From a virus: DNA of 64,000 nucleotides. Under the pieces are notes generated by a model. It was given only the letters and a program-made list of their open reading frames with translations. It made no database searches and was not told the origin of the DNA. This document shows positions 31,342-61,888 of the stretch, piece after piece; the stretch's first letter is position 1, and each line of letters starts with the position of its first letter. Position numbers and translations under genes: made by a program. The stretch is from the IMG/VR virus record IMGVR_UViG_3300045988_132703. One strand, 5' to 3'.

Positions 31342-31342
31342 A

Positions 31343-34663: not shown

Positions 34664-34674
34664 TATTATAGAAA

Positions 34675-35024: not shown

Positions 35025-35031
35025 ATTTATA

Positions 35032-35583: not shown

Positions 35584-35606
35584 CCACTTTTAATTGAGGA
35601 TAACTT

Positions 35607-36344
35607 ATGGATTCTTTGGTAGATAAATACACTTAGCAAGAGTTAGAATAGATAGTTTAGCTATCTACATCTTATAAAGATTTAGCTCAAAAGTTAGGTT
35701 ATACTGCATTTTCCAGTGATTTAAAATATTTTTTAGAAAATAAATTTTCTGATTTTGATACTTCGCATTTTCAAACAAGAGTTTCAAAAGAAAAGCGGGT
35801 AGAAAGAACAGAGGAAAATGTTTTTATAGAAGATTCTACAGCTTCTCAGCAAACTTTAAGAAGATGGTATCGAAAAGGTAATTATACTCCTTATTAGTGT
35901 TCTATTTGCCATCTTGAACCAATCTGGCAAGGTAAGCCATTGACTTTAATCCTTGACCATATTAATGGCATCAATAATGACGACAGATTAGAAAATCTTC
36001 GATGGGTTTGCCCAAATTGTAACCAATAGCTTGAAACAACTAATGGTAAGAATCGAAAAAATTATTCTAAAAAATATTATTGCATTGATTGTGGAAAAGA
36101 ACTTTCTGGGGATTTCCAAAGATGTAAAAGTTGCGCTGGGAAAATTAGAATTGTTCCTGTTACAGAAATGAGTGTTTCAAGAGATGAATTGAAATCTTTA
36201 ATCCGAAATAAAACTTTTGTTGAGATAGGAAAAGATTTTGGAGTTTCCGATAATGCTGTTCGAAAATGGTGTGATAAGTTAAATTTGCCAAGAACCAAAT
36301 CTTTAATTAAAACCTATTCTGATGAAGAATGGGATAAGCTATGA
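35607..36344 (+). CDS. HNH homing endonuclease with Zn-ribbon and HTH tail
   Basis: LDHINGINNDDRLENLRWVCPNCN; GAGGA then ATG 35607; 5 in-frame TAG (35634, 35649, 35658, 35895, 36027); no standard-code ORF in the track. Confidence 0.75.
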
Positions 36345-36358
36345 AAGTAGCTTTATTT

Positions 36359-36435
36359 ACTCCGATAGTTTAATTGGTGAAAATTTTCGACTGATAATCG
36401 AAAGAGTGCCTGTTCGATTCAGGCTCGGAGTACCA
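36359..36435 (+). tRNA. tRNA-Ile (GAT)
   Basis: Acceptor ACTCCGA/TCGGAGT; anticodon arm TTCGA-CTGATAA-TCGAA; T arm GCCTG-TTCGATT-CAGGC; CCA. Confidence 0.8.
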
Positions 36436-36568
36436 GTTGCGTGACAGTCGTAGAACTCCTATCGGCTGTCTAAAGAACTAGGGTAAGGCTTATGAGTGGA
36501 GTTCGCTCATAAGACGCGCGAGAAAACGTTGCCCAGAGTTTTGCTTCAAAGTCACTCGCGCATTATAG
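36436..36568 (+). ncRNA. structured spacer between tRNA-Ile and the class II tRNA
   Basis: Stems GACAG/CTGTC, CTTATGAG/CTCATAAG, GCGCGAG/CTCGCGC. Confidence 0.3.
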
Positions 36569-36660
36569 CGGCCACTGGAAGAAGCGGTTAAATTCGCCTG
36601 GCCCTCAACCAGGAGTTCTCGTAAGAGATATTGCCAGTTCAAATCTGGCGTGGTCGACCA
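36569..36660 (+). tRNA. class II tRNA with non-canonical anticodon loop CCCTCAA (CTC by numbering; Leu-CAA if the U-turn is shifted)
   Basis: Acceptor CGGCCAC/GTGGTCG, A73, CCA; 3-bp D stem; anticodon stem CCTGG/CCAGG; variable arm TCTC-GTAA-GAGA; T arm GCCAG-TTCAAAT-CTGGC. Confidence 0.6.
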
Positions 36661-36842
36661 AAGTATTGATACCTTCAAGCCTCAAGAAACAGTTTAATAG
36701 AATACTAGTTGCCTATTGAATTAAAGTATTGAGAAACTATAAATCAAAAGATATGTTGTGGAACGGGAATGATACTAACCGGAAAGCGTAAATCGTATTA
36801 GAGAAAAATGGTCTGGAACTCTTTAAATTATCGGACTACCGT

Positions 36843-36928
36843 GCCGGAGTCGTATAGTGGTCGATTACAACGGTTTTGTAAGCCGTCAGCATATGCTCGC
36901 GGGAGTCCGAATCTCCCCTCCGGCTCCA
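36843..36928 (+). tRNA. tRNA-Thr (TGT) with 14-nt variable arm
   Basis: Acceptor GCCGGAG/CTCCGGC; anticodon arm ACGGT-TTTGTAA-GCCGT; variable CAGCATATGCTCGC; T arm GGGAG-TCCGAAT-CTCCC; CCA. Confidence 0.6.
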
Positions 36929-36932
36929 TTAT

Positions 36933-37007
36933 GCGTTTGTAGTTCAATGGAAGAATCGCAGACTCTTAATCTGTCAGATGCAGGTTCAAGTCCTGTCAAA
37001 CGCACCA
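36933..37007 (+). tRNA. tRNA-Lys (CTT)
   Basis: Acceptor GCGTTTG/CAAACGC; anticodon arm GCAGA-CTCTTAA-TCTGT; T arm GCAGG-TTCAAGT-CCTGT; CCA. Confidence 0.8.
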
Positions 37008-37135
37008 TTTAAAGACCATCACAGCATCTGAAATTGGCTTATAACCCGTTGATTCCAGTTCGAATCTGGTGGTTCTATCTTAAAAAGAGGAACTTAGCTC
37101 AATGGTAGAGCAGCGTATTGTTGGTCTTGTTTTAT

Positions 37136-37212
37136 GCGCTCATGGCTCAATTGGAAAGAGTACTCGGCTACGAACCGAGAGATTAAGAGTTCAAGTCTCT
37201 TTGAGCGTACCA
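37136..37212 (+). tRNA. tRNA-Arg (ACG)
   Basis: Acceptor GCGCTCA/TGAGCGT; anticodon arm CTCGG-CTACGAA-CCGAG; T arm AAGAG-TTCAAGT-CTCTT; CCA. Confidence 0.85.
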
Positions 37213-37286
37213 CTTGTAATTTCTACGAATCTTATACAAATCTCCTTGTCGTTCGCGGCTCGACGCTAATAAAGCCGCACTCCTAT

Positions 37287-37363
37287 GCGGCTGTAATTCA
37301 GTTGGATAGAATATCGGACTTCTAATCCGAAAGTCAAGAGTTTGAGTCTCTTCAGCCGCCCCA
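37287..37363 (+). tRNA. tRNA-Arg (TCT)
   Basis: Acceptor GCGGCTG/CAGCCGC; anticodon arm TCGGA-CTTCTAA-TCCGA; T arm AAGAG-TTTGAGT-CTCTT; CCA. Confidence 0.85.
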
Positions 37364-37427
37364 ATAGGGGAGCATTGATTCGCGATCAATGAGATTAAGG
37401 TACTCCTAATACCGGCCTTATATTTTA
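37361..37427 (+). repeat. conserved structured leader upstream of GIY-YIG gene, copy 2
   Basis: Same about 64-nt sequence as 27964-28027 with loop differences; begins at the CCA of tRNA-Arg(TCT). Confidence 0.7.
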
Positions 37428-37450
37428 TTTATCATTTAGGAGTGATAGAT

Positions 37451-38296
37451 ATGCCTATTTGTGGTATTTATAAAATTACTAATTAGATCAATGGGAAATG
37501 TTATATTGGACAAAGTATAAACATTAAACAAAGATGGAGAGCGCATAAAACAAAAGCCTTTAGTCCCTCTAATTCATAGTATGAATGTCCTTTATATAGA
37601 GCCATTCGAAAATATGGCTTAGAGAATTTTTCTTTTGAGGTTTTAGAAGAATGCCCAGCAGAAGAATTGAATCAAAAAGAATAGCAGAATGTTTCTTTCT
37701 TTTAGTCTAATAATCCATCTTTTGGTTATAACTTAACTCCAGGCGGCGATGCCTAGGGAGATAAATGTAGAAAATTAACTGAATTACAAGTTAAAGAAGT
37801 TCAAGATTTGCTACTTTTTAGTTTATTATCTCAAGAAGAAATAAGTAAAAAATTTGGAGTTACTCAAAGAACTATCAGTTCAATAAATACTGGAGAATGT
37901 TATTTTGATCCAAAAATAAATTACCCAATCCGTTCTCACCAAGAAGGAGCGAGAGTCTCCTTTTTGAAAAAGGGACAAGAAATTTCTCCAGACAATTATA
38001 TAACAAAATTATCTGATTCTTTATTTAAAAAATGTGAATATTGTGGTAAAAATATTTAGCATTCTGACAATAAACGCTTTTGTAGTTAGAAGTGCGCACA
38101 AATGGCAAGTCGAATTGTAGAAAGACCAAGTAGAGAAATTTTAAAAAGTGAAATTCGAGAGTAGCCTTTTACGTCTTTAGGTAAAAAATATAGTGTCTCA
38201 GATAATGCAGTTAGGCGCTGGTGTAAAACTTATAATTTACCATTTAAAAAATCAGAAATTAAATCCTATTCAGATGAGCAATGGGATAAAATATAA
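37451..38296 (+). CDS. GIY-YIG homing endonuclease with Zn-ribbon and HTH tail
   Basis: CGIYKITN[TAG]INGKCYIGQS..RWRAHK, GYNLTPGG; 8 in-frame TAG; track ORF 37808-38059 is an internal piece; TAA 38294. Confidence 0.75.
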
Positions 38297-38332
38297 ATTC
38301 TAAGTTTCTGGCTTTGATAAAGCCAGATTTTA

Positions 38333-38408
38333 TGCGCGGATAGTTCAATTGGATAGAACACGTTCCTCCTAAGAATGAAATGTGGTTTCAAGTACCGCTC
38401 GGCGTACC
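38333..38408 (+). tRNA. tRNA-Arg (CCT)
   Basis: Acceptor GCGCGGA/TCGGCGT (one G/G mismatch); anticodon arm CGTTC-CTCCTAA-GAATG; T arm GTGGT-TTCAAGT-ACCGC; CCA. Confidence 0.7.
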
Positions 38409-38447
38409 ACGATTAACTAATAAGTGTCTCCTTTCTTTTCTCATCTT

Positions 38448-52829: not shown

Positions 52830-53084
52830 ATGTATTTTAGTGCTAAACGAGCAGATTGGTTGAGAGAGAATGGTTACTGTCCTGAAGTAGGTTCTTTCAA
52901 AGAAGCTCAGCGAGTTCTTGATTGGCTGATGGCTGATATTTATGTAGCTGCGATAGCCGGAGATACGAAAATTGAAATGTATTGCCCAGATAAACATTCG
53001 ATTGAAATTGAGGATAAGTTGAAGGATTTGGGGTATGAAGTTGAATATGATGGCGGTGCCGAAGTGCTGAAGGTTCAATGGTGA
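52830..53084 (+). CDS. paralog family member 4
   Basis: LKDLGYEVEYDGGAEVLKVQW. Confidence 0.6.
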   Translation: MYFSAKRADWLRENGYCPEVGSFKEAQRVLDWLMADIYVAAIAGDTKIEMYCPDKHSIEIEDKLKDLGYEVEYDGGAEVLKVQW

Positions 53085-53089
53085 GTTAA

Positions 53090-53377
53090 ATGAAATTTGA
53101 TTGCAGAATTCCTCGTGCTCTTATGATGCCTAGGGTGTCTAATTTCCCCTTTAAAGAAGCTCAAGAAATTTATTGTCAGCAAAGAATCTTGGATGATATA
53201 ATGGAAAGAATTTATGACAATTCTTGCCGTAAAATCGGTTGTGCAAAATTTAAGATGCGTGACGGTAAGACTTTTTCAGTCATTTATAATGAATTGAAAA
53301 GTCTCGGGTATGACGTAGAGTATGAGAAAGAACCGCTTGAAGACGGAGTTTTAGTAAAAATGAAGATAATGTGGTAA
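53090..53377 (+). CDS. paralog family member 5
   Basis: LKSLGYDVEYEKEPLEDGVLVKMKIMW. Confidence 0.6.
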   Translation: MKFDCRIPRALMMPRVSNFPFKEAQEIYCQQRILDDIMERIYDNSCRKIGCAKFKMRDGKTFSVIYNELKSLGYDVEYEKEPLEDGVLVKMKIMW

Positions 53378-53382
53378 CTTCA

Positions 53383-53407
53383 AGAGAGGAAAATCCTCTC
53401 TTTTTTA
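53383..53407 (+). terminator. terminator closing the + strand early region
   Basis: AGAGAGGA-aaa-TCCTCTCT then TTTTT. Confidence 0.65.
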
Positions 53408-53498
53408 TTGCGCGGGAAGATGAAAATTTTTAGAATTTCCTTTTATGCTTACTACTCTTTAAATGATTCTGAGGGAAATTCCTATCTAAATTATAATT

Positions 53499-54130
53499 AA
53501 AAGAGAAAATTAAGAGAAAGAAAGAAAGAAAGAAAGGACGAAGCCTTAACCATCGGGGATAATGCAGCGCTAGTGAGCGAGATTGGGCTTGCCGCAAGCG
53601 CAGCGGGAGGCAAGGCGAATAACGAAGCGAACGGTGCGAGCGACAGCGAGCGCTCAAATGAAATAATAAATTAGAAAAGAAAAAGAGAACCCTATCGCTG
53701 CACTAAAAAGCGATAGGGTTCAATTTATATAATTAAGAAATTAAATAAAGAGAAAGAGAGAGAAAAAGAGGGAGGTGGGAGAGGGAGAAGAAAGAGGGAG
53801 AGGGAAGGGAAGAGAAGAAGAGAAAAGAAGAAAGAGGGAGAGGAAAATGGGATAAGAAGGAGAGAAAAAGAAGGAGAGAAAATGAAAAATGAAAATAAAA
53901 TGAGAGGGAGAGGGGTACAATTCGGGCTAAAGAGAGAAAATCAAAGCAATCCAAAATCCAAAAATTAGAAAAAAATGACACTTAGAGGGAGAGGGAGAGG
54001 GATTGAAGTTAAGAAATTAAATAGAAAGAGAAGGAAAAAGAAAGAAAGAAAAGAAAAATGAAAAAGAGGGAGAGGGAAAAAGAAGGATAAAGAGAGAGAG
54101 AAAAAGAGGAAGAACGAGAAAACTCCCCGC
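53499..54130 (+). repeat. polypurine (A/G) tract on the + strand with AGAGGGAGAGG iterons
   Basis: 53733-54130 is over 90 percent purine by eye; AGAGGGAGAGG at 53793, 53833, 53903, 53983 (tandem) and 54065; TTAAGAAATTAAATA at 53732 and 54008. Confidence 0.85.
53687..53721. other. 13-bp perfect hairpin inside the purine-rich region
   Basis: GAACCCTATCGCT-gcactaaaa-AGCGATAGGGTTC. Confidence 0.6.
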
Positions 54131-54332
54131 CCGACCACCGACGGAGAAACCCAACGTCACCATCCATCCCGTGGCTCCGGCTAATTATATAATGATTTTT
54201 AATGGGCCGAAAAGTAAAACCCGCCCACCTAAAATTTTTGGTAGCGGGATTGATTGGGATGGATGGGAATCCTCTGAAATGAGCTAGTCCACAACTCTTT
54301 ACAAAAGTCAAGTATTAAACTCAATAAAAAAT

Positions 54333-54365
54333 ATAAAAAAAAGAGCCACGAATCCCGTGGCTCCG
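54333..54365 (-). terminator. terminator of the leftward unit ending at 54374
   Basis: Minus strand GAGCCACG-ggatt-CGTGGCTC then T8. Confidence 0.7.
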
Positions 54366-54373
54366 GATCATAA

Positions 54374-54613
54374 TTATTGCGCGGAACGCATTTTCAGCTT
54401 ATCATTCCAATCCTCAACCGCATCATCAATGTCGAAGTTCTTCTTGGCAGTGAGCGAAAAGACAACCCAAATTTCCTCTCCGTTGACTTCCTCAAGAGAA
54501 GCCCATTTATAATCGTCAATCTGGATGCAATCGCTGACAAAATCTTTGCATCGTTCCTTTGTTAAATCCTTGGCGGCTTTGAGTTTTTGCTGCTGATTCA
54601 TCTTATTTTTCAT
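54374..54613 (-). CDS. small protein related to the basic-tail family
   Basis: ATG at 54613 after AAAGGAAAAA; N-terminal KLKAAK stretch; track ORF 54374-54658. Confidence 0.5.
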   Translation of the reverse strand: MKNKMNQQQKLKAAKDLTKERCKDFVSDCIQIDDYKWASLEEVNGEEIWVVFSLTAKKNFDIDDAVEDWNDKLKMRSAQ

Positions 54614-54797
54614 TGGTTTTTCCTTTCTTTGCGCGCGGAGTATAGTCATTTCTGCCACAAATCGCGCATGGAAAAACAGAAATGTAGCCTTCGCTATTGG
54701 TAAAAGTGTTCAAAACTGTATTGAATTTGAGACATTTTTTTGCCCCGAACTGAAGACTAGTACAGCCGTTGCAAATTTCGTCGCGTGAAATCTTCAT
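54603..54797 (-). CDS. zinc-ribbon protein
   Basis: AGGAGA then ATG at 54797; CNGC...CAIC. Confidence 0.5.
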   Translation of the reverse strand: MKISRDEICNGCTSLQFGAKKCLKFNTVLNTFTNSEGYISVFPCAICGRNDYTPRAKKGKTNEK

Positions 54798-54830
54798 TTT
54801 CGATTCTCCTTTTATCTTCTTTATAATTAT

Positions 54831-54859
54831 ATTATACCACAAAGTTGCGCTTTTGTCAA
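54831..54859 (-). promoter_or_regulatory. sigma70-type promoter
   Basis: Minus strand TTGACA-17-TATAAT, TGg extension. Confidence 0.6.
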
Positions 54860-54894
54860 TATTTGGCGCTGATTTAAAAAAGTTTTTTTTGCTT

Positions 54895-54923
54895 ATTATA
54901 TCATACTTTTGAGTAAAAGTCAA
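54895..54923 (-). promoter_or_regulatory. sigma70-type promoter (tandem, cassette-like)
   Basis: Minus strand TTGACT-17-TATAAT, TGa extension. Confidence 0.6.
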
Positions 54924-54943
54924 GTTTTTGAGTTCGGCGCGAA

Positions 54944-54980
54944 TAAAAAAAGATGCGCAGAATCATCCGCGCATCCTTTT
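54944..54980. terminator. bidirectional hairpin terminator
   Basis: A7-GATGCGC-(10 nt)-GCGCATC-CTTTT. Confidence 0.45.
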
Positions 54981-55293
54981 GATGTACTACTCGATCTTTT
55001 TAAACTCAATCAGCTGAGATTCTAATTGAGTTATGCCATTTTGAATTTGATTTGTACTTTTGAGTTGATCATTTTGATTGAAAACTCTTGACTTTGGCTG
55101 GCTTTTGGAGCTTAAAACTCCAGAATTTTGAGCACCTTCGCTCTCAAAACCCTACCAGTCAAGTAGAAAATGAGCGCCAAACTGATTTGACGATACTACG
55201 CACTTTTTATTTGGCGTAGCTACGTCGATTTTTTCAACGCTGGAACGCGATTTATTTTCATCGTTCCTATGTCTTTTCTCATTTTCTATAAAT

Positions 55294-55322
55294 ATTATAT
55301 CATATATTTGCTCTTGAGTCAA
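55294..55322 (-). promoter_or_regulatory. early cassette promoter copy on the minus strand
   Basis: Minus strand TTGACT-17-TATAAT followed by ATTTATAGAAAATGAGAAAAG leader; no convincing ORF downstream. Confidence 0.6.
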
Positions 55323-55408
55323 TAATTTGACGTAGCAGCGTTATTTTTGGCTTGAAAAGTTACGATTTAGGTACAATTTTGCGCATTTTTATTCATTTGT
55401 GCGCCCGA

Positions 55409-55430
55409 TTGTTAAATTTTTAACAAAGTT
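55409..55430. repeat. module A (AT-rich palindrome)
   Basis: TTGTTAAATTTTTAACAAAGTT. Confidence 0.6.
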
Positions 55431-55538
55431 CGCGCTAAAAAATAACGATAAGACGCGAAAAATTGCTGGAAATAACTGGAAAATTGAATTTTTGAATAAA
55501 TATTCAAGAAAAAAGTTTTATTTTACTCGAAAAAATAC

Positions 55539-55567
55539 TTGACATATTGCAAAAAGTATGGTAAAAT
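55539..55567 (+). promoter_or_regulatory. sigma70-type promoter facing the repeat array
   Basis: TTGACA-17-TAAAAT, TGg extension. Confidence 0.55.
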
Positions 55568-55596
55568 GGTATTGTGGAAGAGTGTTGACTATTTTT

Positions 55597-55702
55597 GGCC
55601 CGGTTAGTTAGCTATGACTAACTTTGCCCGGGTGAAACTAGTTAATCATGCCTAACCTCTTGCCCGGGTAAAATTGCCGGGACGAGTTAGTTATAACTAA
55701 CC
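55597..55702. repeat. array of three C-type palindromes interleaved with four (G)CCCGG(G) boxes
   Basis: GGCCCGG-GTTAGTTAGCTATGACTAAC..GCCCGGG..AGTTAATCATGCCTAAC..GCCCGGG..GCCGGG..AGTTAGTTATAACTAAC. Confidence 0.75.
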
Positions 55703-55723
55703 ATAGAGTTCTCCTCCCCTTTT

Positions 55724-55752
55724 ATTATAACATAAAAGATAGGACTTGTCAA
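55724..55752 (-). promoter_or_regulatory. sigma70-type promoter facing the repeat array
   Basis: Minus strand TTGACA-17-TATAAT, then GGAGGAG and a 5-codon ORF. Confidence 0.55.
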
Positions 55753-55755
55753 GCC

Positions 55756-55805
55756 TGTTATTTATTTAACAATGTTTTGCCCGGGCAAGTTAGGCATGAC
55801 TAACT
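55756..55805. repeat. A-B-C intergenic module
   Basis: TGTTATTTATTTAACAATG / GCCCGGGC / AGTTAGGCATGACTAACT. Confidence 0.75.
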
Positions 55806-55811
55806 TCGAGT

Positions 55812-55843
55812 CAAAAGAAAAGAGGGTGAATCACTTCACCCTC
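55812..55843 (-). terminator. terminator of 55851-56171
   Basis: Minus strand GAGGGTGAA-gtga-TTCACCCTC then TTTTCTTTT. Confidence 0.65.
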
Positions 55844-55850
55844 GATTCTG

Positions 55851-56171
55851 TCAAGCCTTCTTCTTGGCGGCACGCTCCTGAGCCTTGCGTTCCTTTTCAG
55901 CGGCCTTTTCCACGGCTACGCGCTCCTTTTCCTCGCGCTCAAATTCCCAATCACCGCAAGCCTGCTCAATGTCGAACGCAGGCACCTTGTCAGTGGCAAT
56001 AGGGTTGGCGCAAGTAAACGCAATCTTTACCCAGCAGGTCACACCGTCAACCTCAGTAGGCAGTGCAAAAGTCGATGCGCCAATCTGACGCGCACTCTCA
56101 GGCAGAATCATGCCGATGATGTTAGACTTAGCAGTGGACAGAATCTCGGACTTCTTCATAGTGGTAGCCAT
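55851..56171 (-). CDS. small protein with Lys/Ala/Glu-rich basic tail, paralog 1
   Basis: MATTMKKSEILS.. N-domain; tail EKERVAVEKAAEKERKAQERAAKKKA; GC-richer. Confidence 0.65.
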   Translation of the reverse strand: MATTMKKSEILSTAKSNIIGMILPESARQIGASTFALPTEVDGVTCWVKIAFTCANPIATDKVPAFDIEQACGDWEFEREEKERVAVEKAAEKERKAQERAAKKKA

Positions 56172-56245
56172 AGTAAACCTCTTTCTCCTACACTTTCGGC
56201 AGTAGGCGCTCTGTTTTAAGTTCTGCTCTCTTTGAGAACATATTC

Positions 56246-56274
56246 ATTATACCATAGGTTGCGAAGTTTGTCAA
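56246..56274 (-). promoter_or_regulatory. promoter of 55851-56171
   Basis: Minus strand TTGACA-17-TATAAT, TGg extension. Confidence 0.65.
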
Positions 56275-56380
56275 GAGTTTTTTGAATTTTTCCTGTTGCT
56301 CTGTCGTTGAGTTATTCGCTCTCTTGAAGTTTCCGTTCCCTTTGGAGTGATTATAGTATATCATACTCTCAGGAAAATAG

Positions 56381-56430
56381 ACATAGACAAATCAATCAAG
56401 AATATGGACAAACGTTGCACCGCGCCCGGG
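56381..56430. repeat. about 50-bp intergenic repeat, copy 1
   Basis: ACATAGACAAATCAATCAAGAATATGGACAAACGTTGCACCGCGCCCGGG. Confidence 0.7.
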
Positions 56431-56456
56431 CGCGCTTCGTTAAATTTTTAACAAAG
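56424..56456. repeat. B-A module
   Basis: GCCCGGGC then CGTTAAATTTTTAACAAAG. Confidence 0.7.
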
Positions 56457-56464
56457 TAGAATAT

Positions 56465-56492
56465 AAGAAAAGGGGCAAGATTTTCTTGCCCC
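56465..56492 (-). terminator. terminator of 56499-56903
   Basis: Minus strand GGGGCAAG-aaaat-CTTGCCCC then TTTTCTT. Confidence 0.7.
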
Positions 56493-56498
56493 AATTCA

Positions 56499-56903
56499 TT
56501 ACTGCTCGACAGAATCGCCCTCGGCGTCAGTGTTTGCGGCTTCACGCTTGGCCTTCTTGGCGGCTTTTACCGCGTCACGCTGGGCTTTCGCGCGTGCCTT
56601 TTCAGCGTCTTTACGCGCCTTTTCAGCAAGGCGTGCCTGCTTTGCGTCCTCACGCGCCTTAACAGTGAAGTCATACTCCTCCGAGGCAGCGGCAAGATCA
56701 TAAGCCTTTGCCTTTTCAGTATCCGCATAGCGGTGTGCGGCAACCTTAACGGTCATCGGCACATCAATCTCGGTCTCACCGTCTTTGACGGTGACATACA
56801 TACCGAACTCTGCACCATCAACCTGATACGGCAGGTCTGCCAGCTTCAGCTGGGCGATAATCTGCTGACGGGCGGCTTCCATAATTTCAAACTGCTTCAT
56901 CAT
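56499..56903 (-). CDS. small protein with basic tail, paralog 2
   Basis: ATG at 56903 after AAAGAGG; tail AKQARLAEKARKDAEKARAKAQRDAVKAAKKAKREA. Confidence 0.65.
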   Translation of the reverse strand: MMKQFEIMEAARQQIIAQLKLADLPYQVDGAEFGMYVTVKDGETEIDVPMTVKVAAHRYADTEKAKAYDLAAASEEYDFTVKAREDAKQARLAEKARKDAEKARAKAQRDAVKAAKKAKREAANTDAEGDSVEQ

Positions 56904-56969
56904 AAGTGTACCTCTTTCTCTCACTCTTGGCTGTGAGCGCCTTGTTCTGTACCCCTTTGGAGTATCTTT

Positions 56970-56998
56970 ATTATATCACAGTCAGTGGAATTTGTCAA
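56970..56998 (-). promoter_or_regulatory. promoter of 56499-56903
   Basis: Minus strand TTGACA-17-TATAAT, TGa extension. Confidence 0.65.
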
Positions 56999-57085
56999 GC
57001 GTTTTTTTAGAATTTCTTTTGAAGTTCTTCGCTTGCTTTCCTCTCTTGACTGTATATATAGTATACCATAGCAATGCATAAATGA

Positions 57086-57134
57086 ACATAGACAAATCAT
57101 GCAAGAACATGGATAAATGTTGCAGGCGCCCGGG
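57086..57134. repeat. about 50-bp intergenic repeat, copy 2
   Basis: ACATAGACAAATCATGCAAGAACATGGATAAATGTTGCAGGCGCCCGGG. Confidence 0.7.
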
Positions 57135-57156
57135 CGCGAGTTAGGTATGACTAACT
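57128..57156. repeat. B-C module
   Basis: GCCCGGGC then AGTTAGGTATGACTAACT. Confidence 0.7.
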
Positions 57157-57160
57157 CAAA

Positions 57161-57197
57161 AGAAAAAGAAAAGAGCCGTTCTGATTTTGAACGGCTC
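57161..57197 (-). terminator. terminator of 57204-58004
   Basis: Minus strand GAGCCGTTC-aaaatca-GAACGGCTC then TTTTCTTTTT. Confidence 0.7.
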
Positions 57198-57203
57198 AAT
57201 TTT

Positions 57204-58004
57204 TTATAGTGCGGCCAACTTTTTACGCAGTTCCTTCAACTCTTTTTCGAGTTCTTCAATTTCGGACTGAATCTCAATTTTCTTCGCGGCAACTTTCTTT
57301 TGATTGCGGCGATTGATTTTTTGCGCCTTCTGCCATACGCCACCACGCGGAGTTTTGTCCAGCTTTTTGTGCATAGCTAAGCACTTTTTCAAAATTAACG
57401 CTTCTATGTTGGAATCGTCAATGCCTTTGTGCTGTTCGACAAACTCAAAATTTCCAGTCAAAAAACGGTAGGCACATTCCGCATTTGTAAGAATGTTTCC
57501 CTTTTCAGATACCCAGCCCTGCGCAATAGCGGTCTTATAGTAGTCATTACCAGCAAGGAACGCACAAGCGGCCATATTCCAAATACAGTACAGCCGAACG
57601 CCCTTTTTCCAAAACCATTTATAACGACCGTCCGTTGAAAAATTCATGAGATTGTTAAGAGCGCGGCGGTCAAAAGCCATGTTGTAAGCGTAGCACTCTT
57701 TGCAATTAAACTGCGCTAAATCGTCGAAAAAAGTCTTTCGCGCGAAATATGCGCTGACAAGTTGTTTTTTGCCTGCCCAAATATCCTCCCAATAAGAAGG
57801 AACCTTTTGAACGTAATAGGCCGAATCCATCAGCGTATTATCGAGAAAAATTTCTTTAATAACAAAAGAACGGCGGCAAATCTCGCGCATCTCTGCGCCC
57901 TCGTACAAAATGTAAGAGAAGTCATAAGGGAGGGGCTTATTCAAACCCCCTGCAGTTTCAGTATCGAGAACGCAACGAATCTTTTTTTTACTCAATGGGT
58001 GCAA
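57204..58004 (-). CDS. DEDDh (DnaQ-like) 3'-5' exonuclease with C-terminal coiled coil
   Basis: VLDTETAG (ExoI), YNMAFDRRAL (ExoII), HKGIDDSNIEAL (ExoIII, H-x4-D). Confidence 0.7.
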   Translation of the reverse strand: MHPLSKKKIRCVLDTETAGGLNKPLPYDFSYILYEGAEMREICRRSFVIKEIFLDNTLMDSAYYVQKVPSYWEDIWAGKKQLVSAYFARKTFFDDLAQFNCKECYAYNMAFDRRALNNLMNFSTDGRYKWFWKKGVRLYCIWNMAACAFLAGNDYYKTAIAQGWVSEKGNILTNAECAYRFLTGNFEFVEQHKGIDDSNIEALILKKCLAMHKKLDKTPRGGVWQKAQKINRRNQKKVAAKKIEIQSEIEELEKELKELRKKLAAL

Positions 58005-58035
58005 CCTCTTTCTGTTAATTTTTTAGAACATTATT

Positions 58036-58064
58036 ATTATAACAGACTGTATACAATTTGTCAA
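58036..58064 (-). promoter_or_regulatory. promoter of 57204-58004
   Basis: Minus strand TTGACA-17-TATAAT. Confidence 0.6.
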
Positions 58065-58118
58065 GTCAAAAGACAAAAGAATTTTCAAATGAATTTTATG
58101 CAATATGCCGAAAATGAG

Positions 58119-58172
58119 AGTTAGGCTTGACTAACCGCGTCCGGGCAGCCGCTTGTTAAATTTTTCACAAAG
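58119..58172. repeat. C-B-A module
   Basis: AGTTAGGCTTGACTAACC / TCCGGGC / TTGTTAAATTTTTCACAAAG. Confidence 0.7.
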
Positions 58173-58217
58173 TTGGGTCAAAAGAAAAGAGAGCGCATTT
58201 CTGCGCCCTCAATTCTA

Positions 58218-58586
58218 TCAAGCCTTTTCGGCGTCACGAGCCGCCTTTTCTGCGGCACGCTTGGCACGGCGGTCAGCGTCAGCCTTGACCTTATCGTCAT
58301 GCTTGCGCTTGCGCTCTGCGGCCTTTGCGGCGGATTCCGCCAGCTCTGCCTGATACTTCTCGACCGCATCGTCAAGGTCGAACGCGGCGACCTTTTCGGT
58401 GGCAATGGGGTTCGCGGCAGTCACCGCAATCTTGGTGTAGGTCTGGTTGCCCTCATAGTCGATAGAGGGGATAGCCCACAGGCCAGAGCCAATCTGGACA
58501 GCACCGAGGGCTTCCAGATTCAGCTTTGCAAGGGTGTCAGCCTTGATAGCGGAAAGCAGGTCGGACTTCTTCATAGTGTTAGCCAT
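58218..58586 (-). CDS. small protein with basic tail, paralog 3
   Basis: MANTMKKSDLLS.. N-domain closely matches 55851-56171; tail AAERKRKHDDKVKADADRRAKRAAEKAARDAEKA. Confidence 0.65.
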   Translation of the reverse strand: MANTMKKSDLLSAIKADTLAKLNLEALGAVQIGSGLWAIPSIDYEGNQTYTKIAVTAANPIATEKVAAFDLDDAVEKYQAELAESAAKAAERKRKHDDKVKADADRRAKRAAEKAARDAEKA

Positions 58587-58654
58587 AAGATACCTCTTTC
58601 TCTTGCAGTCAGTCGCAAGTCACTTTGTTTTTCTGTTCCTCTTGGAACATCTTT

Positions 58655-58683
58655 ATTATAGCACAGTCGAGAGCGTTTGTCAA
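58655..58683 (-). promoter_or_regulatory. promoter of 58218-58586
   Basis: Minus strand TTGACA-17-TATAAT, TGc extension. Confidence 0.65.
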
Positions 58684-58778
58684 GAATTTTTTTTATTTTT
58701 TTTTGAACTCTTTGTGAGTGATTTCTTATTCCGTTCCCTTGACTGTATATATAGTATAGCACAACTAAACGCTAATGG

Positions 58779-58826
58779 ACATAGACAAATCGTGCAAGAA
58801 CATGGATAAATGTTGCGCCGTGCCCG
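58779..58826. repeat. about 50-bp intergenic repeat, copy 3
   Basis: ACATAGACAAATCGTGCAAGAACATGGATAAATGTTGCGCCGTGCCCGG. Confidence 0.7.
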
Positions 58827-58830
58827 GACG

Positions 58831-58856
58831 AAAAAGAAGTCCCATAAAAGGGACTC
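58831..58856 (-). terminator. terminator of 58864-59268
   Basis: Minus strand AGTCCC-ttttat-GGGACT then TCTTTTT. Confidence 0.55.
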
Positions 58857-58863
58857 CAATTTG

Positions 58864-59268
58864 TTACACCAAAGAGTAGTAAGCATTTGTATTTTTAACA
58901 ACCAGCTTTGTGTGGTCGCTATTAAATTTACATCTATTACCACAAGCCTGGCAATTTCTGGTATCCGCTGAATAGCTACACCAATCTTCAAGGGGAATTT
59001 CCAGCGTGCCTTCGTCAACTTCTTCACGCTTAACAAGTCCCATCTTGACGAGCCGCCGACAACAAGCAGCAATCATCTCAACAGTAACACCGCGAGGGAA
59101 ACCAACATTATCATTGACCCACTGGCGAATTTCTTTGCATCGTACAGGGCGATTCATATCTTGAAGCGCGTGATAAACGCAATCAGTGCACATGAGCTGC
59201 CACGCAGGAGCGGACAGCATAGGGAAAGCGCGAAGAATGTTTTCGTTGCAATCAATAACAATAGACAT
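58864..59268 (-). CDS. putative winged-helix protein with C-terminal Cys cluster
   Basis: ATG at 59268 after GAAAGAGG; ..RRLVKMGLVKRE.. then C..CQACGNRC. Confidence 0.5.
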   Translation of the reverse strand: MSIVIDCNENILRAFPMLSAPAWQLMCTDCVYHALQDMNRPVRCKEIRQWVNDNVGFPRGVTVEMIAACCRRLVKMGLVKREEVDEGTLEIPLEDWCSYSADTRNCQACGNRCKFNSDHTKLVVKNTNAYYSLV

Positions 59269-59310
59269 ATTAGTTACCTCTTTCTTTCTTTTCTCTCTTG
59301 GTGTACCTAT

Positions 59311-59339
59311 ATTATATATCATTTGCTCTTGAATGTCAA
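59311..59339 (-). promoter_or_regulatory. promoter of 58864-59268
   Basis: Minus strand TTGACA-17-TATAAT. Confidence 0.6.
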
Positions 59340-59353
59340 TAGGTAAAGTGAAA

Positions 59354-59403
59354 GTTATTTATTTAACAATGTCTTGCCCGGGCGCAGTTAGGCTTAACTA
59401 ACT
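59354..59403. repeat. A-B-C module between divergent promoters
   Basis: GTTATTTATTTAACAATG / GCCCGGGC / AGTTAGGCTTAACTAACT. Confidence 0.75.
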
Positions 59404-59421
59404 ATTTTGCAAAAATAATGC

Positions 59422-59450
59422 TTGACTTTTGAACGCGGCTGTGCTATACT
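59422..59450 (+). promoter_or_regulatory. promoter of kinase-like gene
   Basis: TTGACT-17-TATACT, TGc extension. Confidence 0.6.
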
Positions 59451-59475
59451 AATAATAAAGAAAGCGAGGTACGCA

Positions 59476-60111
59476 ATGAAAATCACAAAACTCAAATTTG
59501 AAACCGATTTTCCTATCGACTTTTTCTTGGTCCTCAATACTTGCCCTCGGAATAAAGAGAAACGTTATTGGTGGGCAATCAATTTTGCTAAAGAATGGGG
59601 GCTTGAAGTTCACAGCGGCATGACGCGCGTTGCTTTTGTGTTTGATGATTTTGCAATCAAACTTGATATTAACTCTACCACTAACGGTTGTGAGGAAGAA
59701 TACAAGCGTTTCCAGGTTGCACGCGAATATGGAATTGAACGAATCCTTTTGACCATTGAAAAATGGTACACCTCGCCGCGTGGTGTTACTTTTTACATTC
59801 AGCCCAAATGCGGCGAATTGGTGTACGATTATGATGCCGATGAATATACAGACACCTTTAATGCAGTAGCAAGCACTTTGGAACATCAAGGTTATTGCAG
59901 GCGTAAAATTAGACGCTATATCGATAAAATGCCTTACGAAATCGAGGAGATGGAATGGGTAGGTCGTTGTGTGCAATATTACGGTTGGAAATTTATGCAC
60001 CGTCTGATGGACTGGATGCAAGATTATAACATCACGGATTTGCACGGCGGGAATATTGGCTTTGTAGCGCACAATCGCCCTGTAATTTTTGATTACGCAG
60101 GCGTGAGATAG
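59476..60111 (+). CDS. protein-kinase-fold protein
   Basis: FAIKLD (beta3 Lys), EEEYKRF (helix C Glu), TDLHGGNIG (catalytic loop), IFDYAG (DFG-like); ends at TAG 60109, next in-frame TAA 60127. Confidence 0.6.
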   Translation: MKITKLKFETDFPIDFFLVLNTCPRNKEKRYWWAINFAKEWGLEVHSGMTRVAFVFDDFAIKLDINSTTNGCEEEYKRFQVAREYGIERILLTIEKWYTSPRGVTFYIQPKCGELVYDYDADEYTDTFNAVASTLEHQGYCRRKIRRYIDKMPYEIEEMEWVGRCVQYYGWKFMHRLMDWMQDYNITDLHGGNIGFVAHNRPVIFDYAGVR

Positions 60112-60117
60112 TCAGCT

Positions 60118-60149
60118 GGGTCACATTAAATGTGACCCTTTTATTTTTT
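60118..60149 (+). terminator. terminator of kinase-like gene
   Basis: GGGTCACAT-taa-ATGTGACCC then TTTTATTTTTT. Confidence 0.7.
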
Positions 60150-60155
60150 ATGCAG

Positions 60156-60202
60156 AGTTAGGTGCAACTAACTGTGCCCGGGTGGATTAGGTACGACTAA
60201 CT
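60156..60202. repeat. C-B-C module
   Basis: AGTTAGGTGCAACTAACT / GCCCGGG / ATTAGGTACGACTAACT. Confidence 0.7.
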
Positions 60203-60212
60203 ACACACAAAA

Positions 60213-60233
60213 TAAAAACCCGCCGAAGCGGGC
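60213..60233 (-). terminator. terminator of 60238-60456
   Basis: Minus strand CCCGC-ttcg-GCGGG then TTTTT. Confidence 0.6.
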
Positions 60234-60237
60234 AAAT

Positions 60238-60456
60238 TCATTCCTTAAACTTTACATTCATAAAGACTTCTACTTTTTCATCAGCCGTGAAGAATACGGG
60301 CAAACCATTCGAGAGCATCACGGCATTATACAGTCGATTCTGCGCGATAAAACGCGGAACAACCAAACACAGTCTACCGTGAGGATAACGAACATAATCA
60401 CCCACCTCTGTATTACCAAACAGAGATAAAGTTTTTTCGGTAAGGTTAATCTGCAT
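60238..60456 (-). CDS. small beta-rich protein, family member
   Basis: Track ORF; FGNTEVGDYV...NAVMLSNG..VFF pattern shared with 62491, 63388 and 63633 genes. Confidence 0.55.
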   Translation of the reverse strand: MQINLTEKTLSLFGNTEVGDYVRYPHGRLCLVVPRFIAQNRLYNAVMLSNGLPVFFTADEKVEVFMNVKFKE

Positions 60457-60556
60457 AGATACCAGCTCCTATTGATAAATTAAAATGCTTGACGGGAGTT
60501 TTCTGGCTTGACTATTGCCTTGCCTACCCGTTAGTTCATTTCCTTTTGATGTATTT

Positions 60557-60585
60557 ATCATATCATACTTAATCCCGATTGTCAA
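60557..60585 (-). promoter_or_regulatory. promoter of 60238-60456
   Basis: Minus strand TTGACA-17-TATGAT, TGa extension. Confidence 0.55.
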
Positions 60586-60742
60586 GAGCTTTGCGGCAAA
60601 TTTCTTTGTTGATTTTGCGCATCTTACGCGTACAGTCATGCTTATCTTGACGGATAGAGTTTAACCGCGCGTGCTGACAGTAAAAGTGACGCGCAAACTT
60701 ATCCTCAAAGGTCAGTTTCTTTTTCTCGTTTTTTGCAGCCAT
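60569..60742 (-). CDS. hypothetical small basic protein
   Basis: 57-codon ORF MAAKNEKKKLTFEDKF..; AAAGGAGA SD; own promoter 60764-60792. Confidence 0.4.
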   Translation of the reverse strand: MAAKNEKKKLTFEDKFARHFYCQHARLNSIRQDKHDCTRKMRKINKEICRKALDNRD

Positions 60743-60763
60743 ACTATCGTCTCCTTTTTCTAT

Positions 60764-60792
60764 ATTATACTATATATAAAGTAAAATGTTAA
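60764..60792 (-). promoter_or_regulatory. promoter of 60569-60742
   Basis: Minus strand TTAACA-17-TATAAT. Confidence 0.5.
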
Positions 60793-60794
60793 GC

Positions 60795-60844
60795 GTTATT
60801 TATTTAACAAAGTTCGCCCGGCGGATGGTTAGGCATAACTAACT
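60795..60844. repeat. A-B-C module between divergent promoters
   Basis: GTTATTTATTTAACAAAG / GCCCGGC / GGTTAGGCATAACTAACT. Confidence 0.75.
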
Positions 60845-60857
60845 TTAAAAATAATGC

Positions 60858-60886
60858 TTGACATTTCGGGATAATTATGCTATAAT
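60858..60886 (+). promoter_or_regulatory. promoter of 60907-61251
   Basis: TTGACA-17-TATAAT, TGc extension. Confidence 0.65.
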
Positions 60887-60906
60887 AAATACATCAAAAG
60901 GAGGTA

Positions 60907-61251
60907 ATGAATATGAAGAAAATGATCGAAATGGATTGCTGCGATGTTTGCGGCAAACCGATATATATGTCGCCTAAGTATATTAACAGCTATGCTTTCA
61001 AGAACGGCAATGGACAGCAATTTGATGCAGTTCTTTGTGAGGATTGTTTAGAAAATAACAAAGTCTTTGAGTGCGCAGGTTGCGGTTGCTATCTGCGTAA
61101 TGAAGATGCTTTCCATGTAGATTGCTACGACTACTGTGAGCAGTGTGCTGAAGAAGTGCTCGAAGATAAGCGTCAGGAAATCAAAGATCTGGAGGGTAAT
61201 TTGAAAAACGCAAGAGAAGCGTTCGAACGCCGTAAGGTAGAGAGGGAGTAA
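60907..61251 (+). CDS. Cys-rich zinc-binding protein
   Basis: CCDVCG...CEDC...CAGCGC...CEQC; GGAGG SD. Confidence 0.6.
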   Translation: MNMKKMIEMDCCDVCGKPIYMSPKYINSYAFKNGNGQQFDAVLCEDCLENNKVFECAGCGCYLRNEDAFHVDCYDYCEQCAEEVLEDKRQEIKDLEGNLKNAREAFERRKVERE

Positions 61252-61268
61252 TCCCTCTTTTTTATTTT
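61241..61268 (+). terminator. terminator of 60907-61251
   Basis: AGAGGGA-gtaa-TCCCTCT then TTTTTATTTT. Confidence 0.65.
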
Positions 61269-61269
61269 G

Positions 61270-61320
61270 ATTAGTTAGTCATAACTAATTTGCCCGGGTA
61301 GCAGTTAGCTTTAACTAACT
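61270..61320. repeat. C-B-C module
   Basis: ATTAGTTAGTCATAACTAAT / GCCCGGG / AGTTAGCTTTAACTAACT. Confidence 0.7.
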
Positions 61321-61329
61321 CTTGATATT

Positions 61330-61353
61330 AAAAAAGAGGGCTTTTCAGCCCTC
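61330..61353 (-). terminator. terminator of 61358-61648
   Basis: Minus strand GAGGGCT-gaaa-AGCCCTC then TTTTTT. Confidence 0.65.
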
Positions 61354-61357
61354 AAAA

Positions 61358-61648
61358 TTATTTTGACTTAATCGAGATACCTCCGCGAAGCAAAGCGAAA
61401 GCAATATAAATGCCCCAGAAATTAAGCTCTGGAATTGCTGGCAGAAATGTAAACCACGGTAAGAGCATTAGCACATAAAAGGCATACCATAAATGCGCAC
61501 TAAGCAACAAAAGTGCGATGCAAAGTCCAAGGGCGCTCAGCATCAAGCCCATGCTGTCTTTATTTTCATTTAAGGCTTGTAACAGCTCAACAAAAACCAA
61601 CAGCCCGACAAAGTACGCAATCAGCAAAAACCAAAACATTAGATACAC
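61358..61648 (-). CDS. membrane protein (3 TM)
   Basis: Track ORF; almost entirely hydrophobic. Confidence 0.55.
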   Translation of the reverse strand: MYLMFWFLLIAYFVGLLVFVELLQALNENKDSMGLMLSALGLCIALLLLSAHLWYAFYVLMLLPWFTFLPAIPELNFWGIYIAFALLRGGISIKSK

Positions 61649-61827
61649 CCCTTTACCTTGTATGTCATAATGTAATTACGGCGATTCTTGCACTTTTCGT
61701 AGCGCTGGCGTTCCTTTGCTTGGCGATAGGCAATTTCGGGATTGCCCTTAAACTCGATAGGGTCGAGCTTACCACAATTTAGGACAAAGCCATAGTTTTC
61801 ATCAACTTCATAACCGAAAACCTGCAT
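61639..61827 (-). CDS. hypothetical protein
   Basis: Track ORF behind promoter 61860-61888. Confidence 0.5.
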   Translation of the reverse strand: MQVFGYEVDENYGFVLNCGKLDPIEFKGNPEIAYRQAKERQRYEKCKNRRNYIMTYKVKGCI

Positions 61828-61859
61828 TTTATTTTACCTCTCTTTCAGTTTCTATAATT

Positions 61860-61888
61860 ATTATACCATACATTCGCACCATTGTCAA
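61860..61888 (-). promoter_or_regulatory. promoter of 61827-61358 unit
   Basis: Minus strand TTGACA-17-TATAAT, TGg extension. Confidence 0.65.

Follow-up and report, generated by a model that had tools for sequence, protein, structure and literature searches.

Conserved non-coding purine/pyrimidine tract between convergent terminators of a large tailed phage as a candidate locus for RNA directed at Shine-Dalgarno regions

The Rsa small RNAs (sRNAs) of Staphylococcus aureus have a 5' hairpin, unpaired UCCC motifs that bind the Shine-Dalgarno (SD) sequence and block initiation, and a classical 3' terminator (PMC2790875; for the UCCC/C-rich sRNA class of Firmicutes, see also PMC4132741). SD-like polypurines that are not followed by a gene (STAB-SD) bind ribosomes and protect RNA from 5' decay, and a polypurine stabiliser is found in the early RNA of the large Firmicute myovirus SP82 (PMC3997798, PMC7509114). 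Here, a 0.9-kb gap between two convergent terminators (positions 53410–54330) was analyzed in a 64,000-nucleotide stretch of viral DNA (IMG/VR record IMGVR_UViG_3300045988_132703; the whole stretch is called the window). The gap contains a tract that is almost entirely purine on the + strand. An earlier note, made from the sequence alone, had described the tract and proposed that it is a replication origin, a packaging or terminal region, or the source of a purine-rich RNA or its anti-SD-like complement. The RNA reading, especially the anti-SD-like complement, was the best supported of these three roles. Most likely, the locus holds at least two RNA genes; it resembles neither an origin nor a genome end. 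Tentatively, one of them is read as a CU-rich leftward RNA of ~0.45–0.5 kb that would pair with SD regions, as a multi-site version of the Firmicute UCCC/C-rich sRNAs.

The strand asymmetry described earlier was confirmed: positions 53733–54130 are 86.9% purine (A 217, G 129, T 34, C 18), with sub-runs at 53741–53910 (94.1% purine, zero C) and 53983–54120 (92.0%). Elsewhere in the 64 kb, purine and pyrimidine contents both stay below 80% in every 100-nucleotide (nt) stretch. All features listed in the earlier note were present, some with coordinates shifted by one. The six copies of AGAGGGAGAGG (53793, 53833, 53903, 53984, 53990, and 54065) all lie within the tract and are the window's full set, and both of the window's copies of TTAAGAAATTAAATA are in the region (53733 and 54009). 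CCATCCATCCC (54160–54170), GGGATGGATGG (54256–54266), a perfect 13-bp hairpin (53687–53721), and a GC island (53545–53662) were also found. The repeats had been called iterons. They are real, but the name does not fit: their spacing is irregular (40, 70, 81, 6, and 75 nt between AGAGGGAGAGG copies in the window), their copy number is variable (0–6 exact copies of the 11-mer among relatives), and about three copies of GAGGGAGAGGG are conserved, at island edges.

The proposed richness in SD-like motifs was borne out as well. The tract has 26 GGAG/GAGG cores, and its + strand repeat units AGAAAGAGGGAGAGG and AGAAGGAGAGAAAA resemble the phage's own ribosome-binding sites (RBSs), the consensus of which is AGAAAG(G)AGG. 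SD-like sites were scored against an assumed Firmicute 16S tail. On the + strand of the window, 124 sites score ≤ −10 kcal/mol, and 11 of them fall in the tract (1.4% of the window), a ~6-fold enrichment; at ≤ −12 kcal/mol, the count is 6 of 37 (~11-fold). Optimal SD cores are scarce on this strand of the tract, with no AGGAGG and one GGAGG, where a random purine mix would be expected to give about 3 and 5 (rough estimate). Purine matches of the SD-like kind cluster densely at just one other place in the window, in collagen repeats (bin 21501).

The gap is a conserved non-coding locus, insulated by the two convergent terminators that the earlier note had placed at its ends. T0 (53382–53408, + strand; 9-bp stem at 53382–53402 followed by T6) is the intrinsic terminator of the rightward early genes, and T1 (54334–54364, − strand; 10-bp stem, 54364→54342 followed by T8) is that of a leftward gene for a 79-amino-acid (aa) protein and is invariant across relatives. 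Relatives were collected through this 79-aa gene and comprised six IMG/VR contigs (128–179 kb), an ENA clade (180-kb contig), and ten further human-gut copies; where single relatives have to be told apart, they are given as L001 and so on. The locus was found in at least 17 independent assemblies from three or more clades of related ~130–180 kb human-gut phages, the related contigs originating from human-gut metagenomes. Homology to the window begins at T0 (53384–53386) in all relatives and spans the whole non-coding region, while the genes to the left of T0 are mosaic or absent. The earlier note had named absence of the tract from close relatives as a refutation; the tract is present in all of them, at 306–396 nt, 83–87% purine, and 15–26 GGAG/GAGG cores.

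The non-coding status assumed earlier also held, as each small open reading frame (ORF) in the gap is broken in some relatives by frameshifting indels or stop codons. A 26-aa ORF near the left end is broken by a 1-nt deletion, stop codons interrupt the + strand ORF MKNENKMRGRGV... in the window as well as in L001 and L006, and indels of 8, 2, and 1 nt occur within or beside the purine runs of relatives. Coding readings were rejected. The + strand ORFs (MKIFRISF... and MKNENKMRGRGV...) are broken or frame-shifted in relatives; the − strand ORFs rich in S, L, F, and P change frame at a 1-nt indel, with invariant nucleotides around it; and a protein-coding low-complexity repeat would require a period-3 repeat in a conserved long ORF, which is not seen, the indels of 8, 2, and 1 nt and the stops being found instead. 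A motif search of IMG/VR for two copies of AGAGGGAGAGG returned 58 loci, and none of those examined outside the phage group was comparable: they were period-3 coding repeats in ORFs of 500–1500 aa (often in giant-virus bins) or short tracts.

Conservation within the locus is partitioned. Mean pairwise identities across 12 genomes were 94.3% for the leftmost block (block A), 90.9% for the GC island, 96.9% for the region of the 13-bp hairpin (T3), 90.8 and 91.8% for two islands inside the tract (I2 and I3), and 89.8% for the block at the right end (3' block). The flanking genes have 94–96% and their promoter region 96%; greater conservation of the islands than of coding DNA was thus rejected, the values being about equal (90–97% vs 94–96%). 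The purine runs between the islands are ~65% alignable, with 15–37% gap columns. Run 2 (53748–53874) has 65–76% identity, up to 36.5% gap columns, and a length of 92–178 nt in relatives, and run 3 (54024–54122) has 64.8% identity, 15.5% gap columns, and 98–136 nt; both are hypervariable and are pyrimidine runs on the − strand. I2 (53833–53857) lies within run 2 and includes an invariant SD with the mini-ORF AUG GGA UAA (+ strand, 53847–53855). I3 (53875–54023) is made up of (GAAAAT)3, GAGAGGGAGAGGGGTACAATTCGGGC, ATCCAAAATCCAAAAAT, and TTAGAGGGAGAGGGATTGAAG, and one part (GCCCGAATTRTACCCCTCT on the − strand) can still be recognised in L104, a distant relative. An invariant box, TTATATAAT-TAAGAAATTAAATA (53725–53747), has TATAAT at 53728–53733; the second copy of TTAAGAAATTAAATA in the region is at 54009–54023.

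We infer from the motif content, the terminator geometry, and the distant lineages described below that the locus is transcribed leftward into a CU-rich RNA. Its start would be near 54178, downstream of a −10-like TATAAT (54190→54185) in the box TTATATAATTAGCC (54192→54179), and it would run through a hairpin domain (54178→54120, the proposed 5' end), then the two pyrimidine runs with I3, and end at T3 (53721→53687) plus a U-tract. The RNA modelled from 54180 to 53675 is 9.6% G, with a predicted structured 5' end, an unpaired CU body, and T3 as terminator. On the − strand model, 14 UCCC motifs were counted, compared to 0.9 for the window background and 6.7 ± 2.1 for composition-matched shuffles, and the relatives have 7–13; CCUCUCCCUCU motifs number 2–6 per modelled RNA. 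The match of the repeat units to the phage RBS consensus was also counted for this model. The UCCC and CCUCUCCCUCU motifs would pair with purine-rich SD regions of mRNAs and block or modulate initiation, with the Firmicute-type RBSs (AGAAAGGAG, GAGAAAGAGGT) of the phage, and presumably of the host, as targets. A non-early promoter would be the most plausible, and shut-off of early or host messages is possible. The runs are proposed to tolerate slippage because only their composition and motif content matter.

The proposed 3' end is the best conserved part of the locus (T3 block 53673–53721, − strand, hairpin plus tail UCUUUUUCUUUUCU). The tail has 10 U of 12 on the − strand in all 13 genomes and 5–6 of 12 on the + strand, and the natural variants of L084, L087/L004, and L089 are G·U-neutral on the − strand only. 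T3 is read as a canonical intrinsic terminator, the strong face of which stops leftward transcription, and is probably bidirectional. Upstream, the 3' block (54123–54283, − strand) consists of a C-rich stretch, UUCCCAUCCAUCCCAAUCAAUCCC (54276→54253), the weak terminator T2 (54253→54224, then UUUUACUUUU), the −10-like box, and the hairpin domain. T2 has an invariant U·G pair on the − strand; its stability is −9.2 kcal/mol in the window and ~−4.3 kcal/mol in relatives, and a terminator-like hairpin is convincing in the window only. Between T1 and the 3' block, a −35-like element, CTTGACTTTTGT (54301–54312, − strand), is conserved in all lineages, including L014, L015, and L104.

Distant relatives, marked by homologs of the 79-aa protein with 54–76% identity, have non-coding DNA at the same position. 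In L104 (74% aa identity), a CT-rich tract of > 450 nt on the gene's strand includes (CT)12, several hairpin-plus-U-run elements, and a homolog of I3 (L104 positions 2268–2949), and the DNA of L020 and L013/14 is pyrimidine-rich or T-rich on the gene's strand, with the polarity seen in the window. In L014, L015, and L106, a consensus sigma-A promoter directly follows the gene's terminator, fires leftward (window − strand), and leads into repeat-rich non-coding DNA. Transcription into the region from the right therefore looks ancestral. The −10 region of L014, TTATATAATTAACC, resembles the window box TTATATAATTAGCC; the DNA behind it (4292–4823) is rich in U/C and (UUA)n, with AT-rich repeats and (TTA)8 inside a hairpin. 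In the most distant lineage, L015 (3745–4190; also L016 and L017), the promoter is followed by ~400 nt of non-coding DNA with 4–5 AACTTGACAA repeats (like −35 boxes without a −10), ~ten CAGCTG-containing repeats, and a final hairpin with a T-run, and L106 (1552–1905) is (TATATTA)n-rich with AT-rich repeats. The repeat type thus appears to turn over between lineages, and the position beside the 79–85 aa gene to be fixed. Whatever its function, this non-coding module diversifies rapidly while keeping its place beside a conserved small gene.

Several observations weigh against the CU-rich RNA. Its motifs are of the CUCCC/CCCUC type and not the true anti-SD core, CCUCC being present once, and the search for a specific long target or for repeats of the tract elsewhere in the window gave only generic RBS-like 11–14-mers. 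The hypervariability of the runs is also an outcome expected of neutral slippage. As to direction, the T3 variants of L002 and the L095 group are G·U-neutral on the + strand only, and a hairpin on any T-rich strand resembles a terminator. The 3' block folds equally well on both strands (−28.0 vs −29.3 kcal/mol), and a long-range helix, CCAYCCATCCC/GGGATGGRTGG, is kept in 12 of 12 genomes on the + strand only. As to the start, the −35 at the proposed leftward promoter is TTTCGG (2/6 matches), in the window clade the conserved TTGACTTTTGT element has no usable −10, and neither strand has a canonical sigma-A promoter ahead of the tract there. Finally, the non-coding DNA of distant relatives is AT-rich or bears TTGACAA/CAGCTG repeats instead, so an anti-SD function that depends on sequence has not been retained throughout the wider family.

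A bolder form of the proposal, doubtful as it stands, is that the RNA, made by a lytic gut phage, acts as a soluble anti-Shine-Dalgarno and an RNA analogue of T4 RegA/RegB: a G-free, unfoldable RNA with a dozen UCCC/CCUCUCCC sites that would compete with 16S rRNA for the RBSs of host and early phage genes. Slippage would adjust the number of sites, and its antagonist could be the small structured RNA that converges on it and has a complementary purine leader. Should the tract be transcribed in the proposed way, its product would be the first phage RNA known to control translation globally by anti-SD mimicry, and an unusual RNA gene in which selection acts on composition and motif density rather than on sequence or fold. 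It would also explain a class of 'low-complexity junk' in large phage genomes.

The second RNA gene would be the GC island (53545–53662), a candidate for a separate small structured RNA, most likely on the + strand. The consensus fold of 12 sequences is −28.5 kcal/mol on the + strand vs −19.3 kcal/mol on the − strand. Three compensated versions of the core stem occur (CTTGCC/GGCAAG, CTTACC/GGTAAG, and CTTGGC/GCCAAG), in which two pairs have changed on both sides, and several G·U↔G-C switches are tolerated on the + strand only. Pairing is kept in 99.4% of the alignment cells, compared to 22–39% in controls with the partners slid by 1–3 columns. The RNA would converge with the CU-rich RNA on T3 as a common bidirectional terminator. 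Its candidate promoter/operator is block A (53405–53500; 81% invariant columns, 0.3% gaps), which contains the inverted repeat GAATTTCC (53433–53440)/GGAAATTC (53474–53481) and the palindrome AATTATAATT (53489–53498) with TATAAT at 53492–53497; a consensus −35 is absent. Block A and the island are joined by purine run 1 ((AAAG)n-type, 53501–53544, + strand), which has an 8-nt length polymorphism, 9.8% gap columns, and a mirror repeat at 53516–53536. In L006, a ~50-nt tandem duplication extends from the end of the GC island across the A-rich linker and the T3 hairpin's 5' arm (alignment A1, columns 280–330). A Chi-like reading of the AGCG repeats in the island was rejected: AGCGG, the Bacillus subtilis-type Chi, is present once and is lost in the L001 clade.

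Further repeats link the locus to its right-hand border. ATCCCGTGGCTCCGG, half of the T1 stem (54352–54366), is duplicated within the 3' block at 54166–54180 (in L021, the duplication is 23 nt and exact), and ATTGCGCGG follows both T0 and T1 (53407 and 54376), with three copies in the window compared to ~0.5 expected. Part of the non-coding region may be derived by duplication of a gene end with its terminator.

Among the other explanations, a terminator or insulator zone without a product of its own fares best, although it is unlikely. The unstructured − strand transcript (C 32%, G 4.5%) would be a Rho loading site, T2 and T3 would be fail-safe terminators against read-through from ~ten leftward promoters, antisense to the rightward early genes, and the runs would be a near-neutral, slippage-prone spacer. 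The setting agrees with this. In the window, 29 near-consensus sigma-A promoters (TTGAC.-N16-18-TA.AAT, with a TG extension in most) were found, none of them inside 53410–54330. They are co-oriented with the genes, 16 on the + strand (10169–51399) and 10 on the − strand (54859–61888), which places the tract exactly where two heavily transcribed early-type blocks converge. The serial terminators all face leftward transcription and their regions are the best conserved, the composition is extremely G-poor, the runs are poorly alignable and indel-rich, and composition differs between distant lineages as if sequence were unimportant. However, the promoters of distant relatives start transcription into the region, which is the opposite of insulation, T1 alone is already a strong terminator, and the AT-rich relatives are not rut-like (Rho utilization). 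Nor does an insulator account for islands I2 and I3, for block A, or for the GC island and its compensatory changes, and purine purity persists where the run sequences no longer align, which suggests selection on composition.

That the product is instead a rightward purine-rich RNA, which would expose 15–26 SD-like sites without genes and bind 30S subunits, is rather improbable. It would start at a weak promoter (53640–53667) or at the TATAAT box at 53728, with the 13-bp hairpin as 5' stabiliser, and would be a ribosome decoy, a self-stabilising RNA of the STAB-SD/SP82 type, or a decoy for an SD-directed nuclease or an (AG)n-binding protein (e.g., Hfq). The enrichment of SD-like sites (11/124 and 6/37 at the two thresholds), the match of the repeat units to the RBS consensus, and the known SD-like polypurine stabilisers of B. 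subtilis and phage SP82 early RNA all suit such an RNA. So do the candidate promoter itself (GCGACA-16-TGaAATAAT), the GC island and the long-range helix, which favour the + strand, and the invariant SD with its mini-ORF in I2, which is meaningful on that strand only. A + strand terminator after the tract is absent, however, T2 and T1 facing the other way, so transcription would continue into the 79-aa gene in antisense orientation. Optimal SD cores are avoided in the tract, several relatives have lost the TG of the candidate promoter, and the promoters of distant relatives point in the opposite direction.

A function of the DNA itself is also hard to credit. The tract would serve as a replication origin activated by transcription, or as a fork or recombination site of non-B DNA prone to R-loops or triplexes, and AT-rich or iteron-bearing DNA would fill the same role in relatives. 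Across lineages, including L015, L106, and L014, this position always has a promoter with low-complexity, AT-rich, or iteron-like DNA behind it, purine-RNA:pyrimidine-DNA hybrids are unusually stable, and the window has two perfect homopurine mirror repeats with arms of at least 10 nt (53516–53536 and 53777–53804). The larger of these is in a window-specific expansion, the triplex potential suggested earlier proved weak and is not conserved in relatives, and no canonical G-quadruplex motif (G3+N1-7 × 4) is present on either strand of the region. The hallmarks of an origin, the first role proposed in the earlier note, were not recovered. DnaA boxes (TTATCCACA, ≤ 1 mismatch) are absent from the region, any in 53009–60380 lying outside it, the window total of 21 vs 18.7 expected being at chance level; no initiator or replication gene was found among the neighbouring ORFs; and the repeats have neither regular spacing nor a stable copy number. 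The cumulative GC skew has its maximum at the tract, which is a terminus-like polarity and arises because gene orientation switches there; in a rough decomposition of the skew, no reversal of a replication component was seen. The favoured leftward transcription would give a weak pyrimidine-RNA:purine-DNA (rY:dR) hybrid, and the compensatory changes of the GC island point to RNA.

The tract is a frequent breakpoint of assemblies, which could be taken in favour of a DNA element. At least nine independent contigs end inside it or within a few hundred bases (L013, L014, L019, L020, L023, L024, L092, L097, and L100). Such breaks are expected because the DNA is of low complexity and length-polymorphic and several strains co-occur; six variants of the locus came from one sample. 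The tract disrupts many metagenome assemblies of an abundant ~180 kb human-gut phage group, for which the invariant flanking blocks are good markers.

It is very unlikely that the leftward transcript is the mRNA of a small hydrophobic peptide rich in S, L, F, and P (SD GGAG 54177→54174, AUG at 54166). Coding in pyrimidines only would be robust to frameshifts, and the GC-island RNA with its purine leader would be the antisense partner in a layout like that of type I toxin-antitoxin systems, with a common bidirectional terminator. In agreement with this, the AUG with its correctly spaced GGAG is conserved, hydrophobic ORFs of 45–64 aa are present in all relatives, the two candidate RNAs converge on one hairpin, and the CU runs and purine run 1 are complementary. 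All frames are open in any pyrimidine run, however, and a 1-nt indel (CGTTGGG vs CGTTGG) shifts the frame of residues 8–16 while the nucleotides are invariant, so it is not the protein that is constrained. L001 and L006 have the weaker SD GAAG, and the ORF covers run 3 only and leaves a 300-nt 3' tail.

A genome terminus, packaging site, terminal-repeat boundary, or assembly artefact at a contig junction, as also raised earlier, has next to no likelihood: several contigs do end inside or at the edges of the tract, but breaks are expected at such DNA in mixed-strain samples, at least 10 long contigs (128–180 kb) read through it at differing positions, with permuted or circular assemblies, so that the tract is internal in most related contigs, and the architecture common to 17 independent assemblies excludes an artefact.

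The window comes from a large tailed phage that encodes tail-fibre and other tail proteins, 14 tRNAs, and a homing-endonuclease-like ORF. Blastn and megablast searches against deposited phages gave no match and no close relative, and distant protein matches were to phages of Enterococcus, Lactobacillus, Psychrobacillus, and Clostridium. These matches, the extended Firmicute-type RBSs (AGAAAGGAG, GAGAAAGAGGT) of the window genes, and the promoter consensus are several lines that point to a Firmicute host. Among characterised phages, Enterococcus phage H1 (L107) is the nearest of analogous layout, and its convergent gap is 575 nt long, 50% purine, and without a purine tract. Five short collinear matches were observed between H1 20790–21306 and window 53878–54351, for instance AATCCAAAATCCAAAAA, GAAAATGAAAA, and the terminator AAAAAAAGAsCCACGA; they are individually weak (E 0.008–0.5) and may be remnants of distant homology or A-rich coincidence.

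The right neighbour of the locus, the 79-aa gene (54613→54374, − strand), is always adjacent to the non-coding module. A confident AlphaFold2 (AF2) model of its protein (pLDDT 92.5) has a helix, three strands, and a helix, and no match was found in Pfam, PDB sequences, PDB folds, or BFVD; the protein is a candidate orphan fold. The other neighbouring small ORFs had no family match. Directly to the left of T0, a 95-aa ORF (53090–53377) has no relatives in IMG/VR and appears to be a window-specific insertion; homology in all relatives resumes exactly at T0 (53384–53386), which marks T0 as a mosaic (recombination) junction. On the leftward arm, segments of 55746–57136 match several places per related locus at 68–87% identity, which suggests paralogous small early genes or repeated promoter-leader units. 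The many small ORFs under co-oriented promoters resemble two convergent early regions of the host-takeover style, as in SPO1-like phages. A GIY-YIG-type homing-endonuclease-like ORF is at 870–1391 and a collagen-repeat tail-fibre gene at 22214–23560. The 14 tRNA genes form a + strand cluster (26205–38409), and tRNA-Gly(UCC) at 29905–29979 reads the GGA of the mini-ORF in I2. Minigenes with peptidyl-tRNA drop-off are known from lambda bar; a link between this tRNA and AUG GGA UAA is speculative.

The literature searched yielded no account of a phage with a non-coding array of the polypurine or anti-SD type. A scan of the whole window at Rfam gathering thresholds gave tRNAs only, and a permissive scan (E ≤ 10) of 53300–54450 gave only chance-level matches; the locus accordingly has no sequence or Rfam similarity to families of the RsaE/RoxS type at either setting. 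Transcription-primed origins are known from T4 (oriF/oriG), T7, and ColE1. The locus is similar to T4 oriF/oriG and ColE1 in that a promoter-like box is followed by a strand-asymmetric, easily opened tract and a purine-rich transcript would form a stable R-loop; it differs in the lack of origin hallmarks and in the unstable hybrid given by the favoured direction. In the lytic phage T4, the endoribonuclease RegB and the repressor RegA shut off the phage's own early mRNAs via GGAG-type SD regions to change expression programmes, and these effectors are proteins, whereas the proposed effector here is an RNA. Csr/Rsm RNAs (CsrB, CsrC, RsmZ) present GGA in hairpin loops to CsrA. The phage locus would likewise be a motif-array non-coding RNA of variable copy number that titrates a factor of the translation machinery, but an all-purine or all-pyrimidine run cannot form such hairpins, and the CsrA-type context was not seen.

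The two groups of RNAs named at the outset are closer. With STAB-SD and SP82, the tract shares strong SD-like sites in a non-coding region, as judged against the assumed Firmicute 16S 3' end. The known stabilisers are, however, single short sites at the 5' end of an mRNA, whereas the tract has 15–26 sites over 0.4 kb, no + strand gene downstream, no + strand terminator, and under-represented GGAGG/AGGAGG. With the Firmicute UCCC sRNAs (RsaA-K including RsaE/RoxS, RNAIII hairpins, and Listeria LhrC), the modelled CU-rich RNA shares a 5' hairpin, unpaired UCCC, and a 3' terminator. Those sRNAs are 60–500 nt long, with 1–4 motifs in the loops of a defined fold, whereas the phage locus has 7–14 UCCC in a G-poor, unfoldable stretch of ~300–400 nt, is phage-encoded, and varies in motif number and spacing between close relatives. 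By this comparison, the locus belongs to no described family, and its mechanism would be a multi-site, composition-defined variant of SD-directed RNA regulators.

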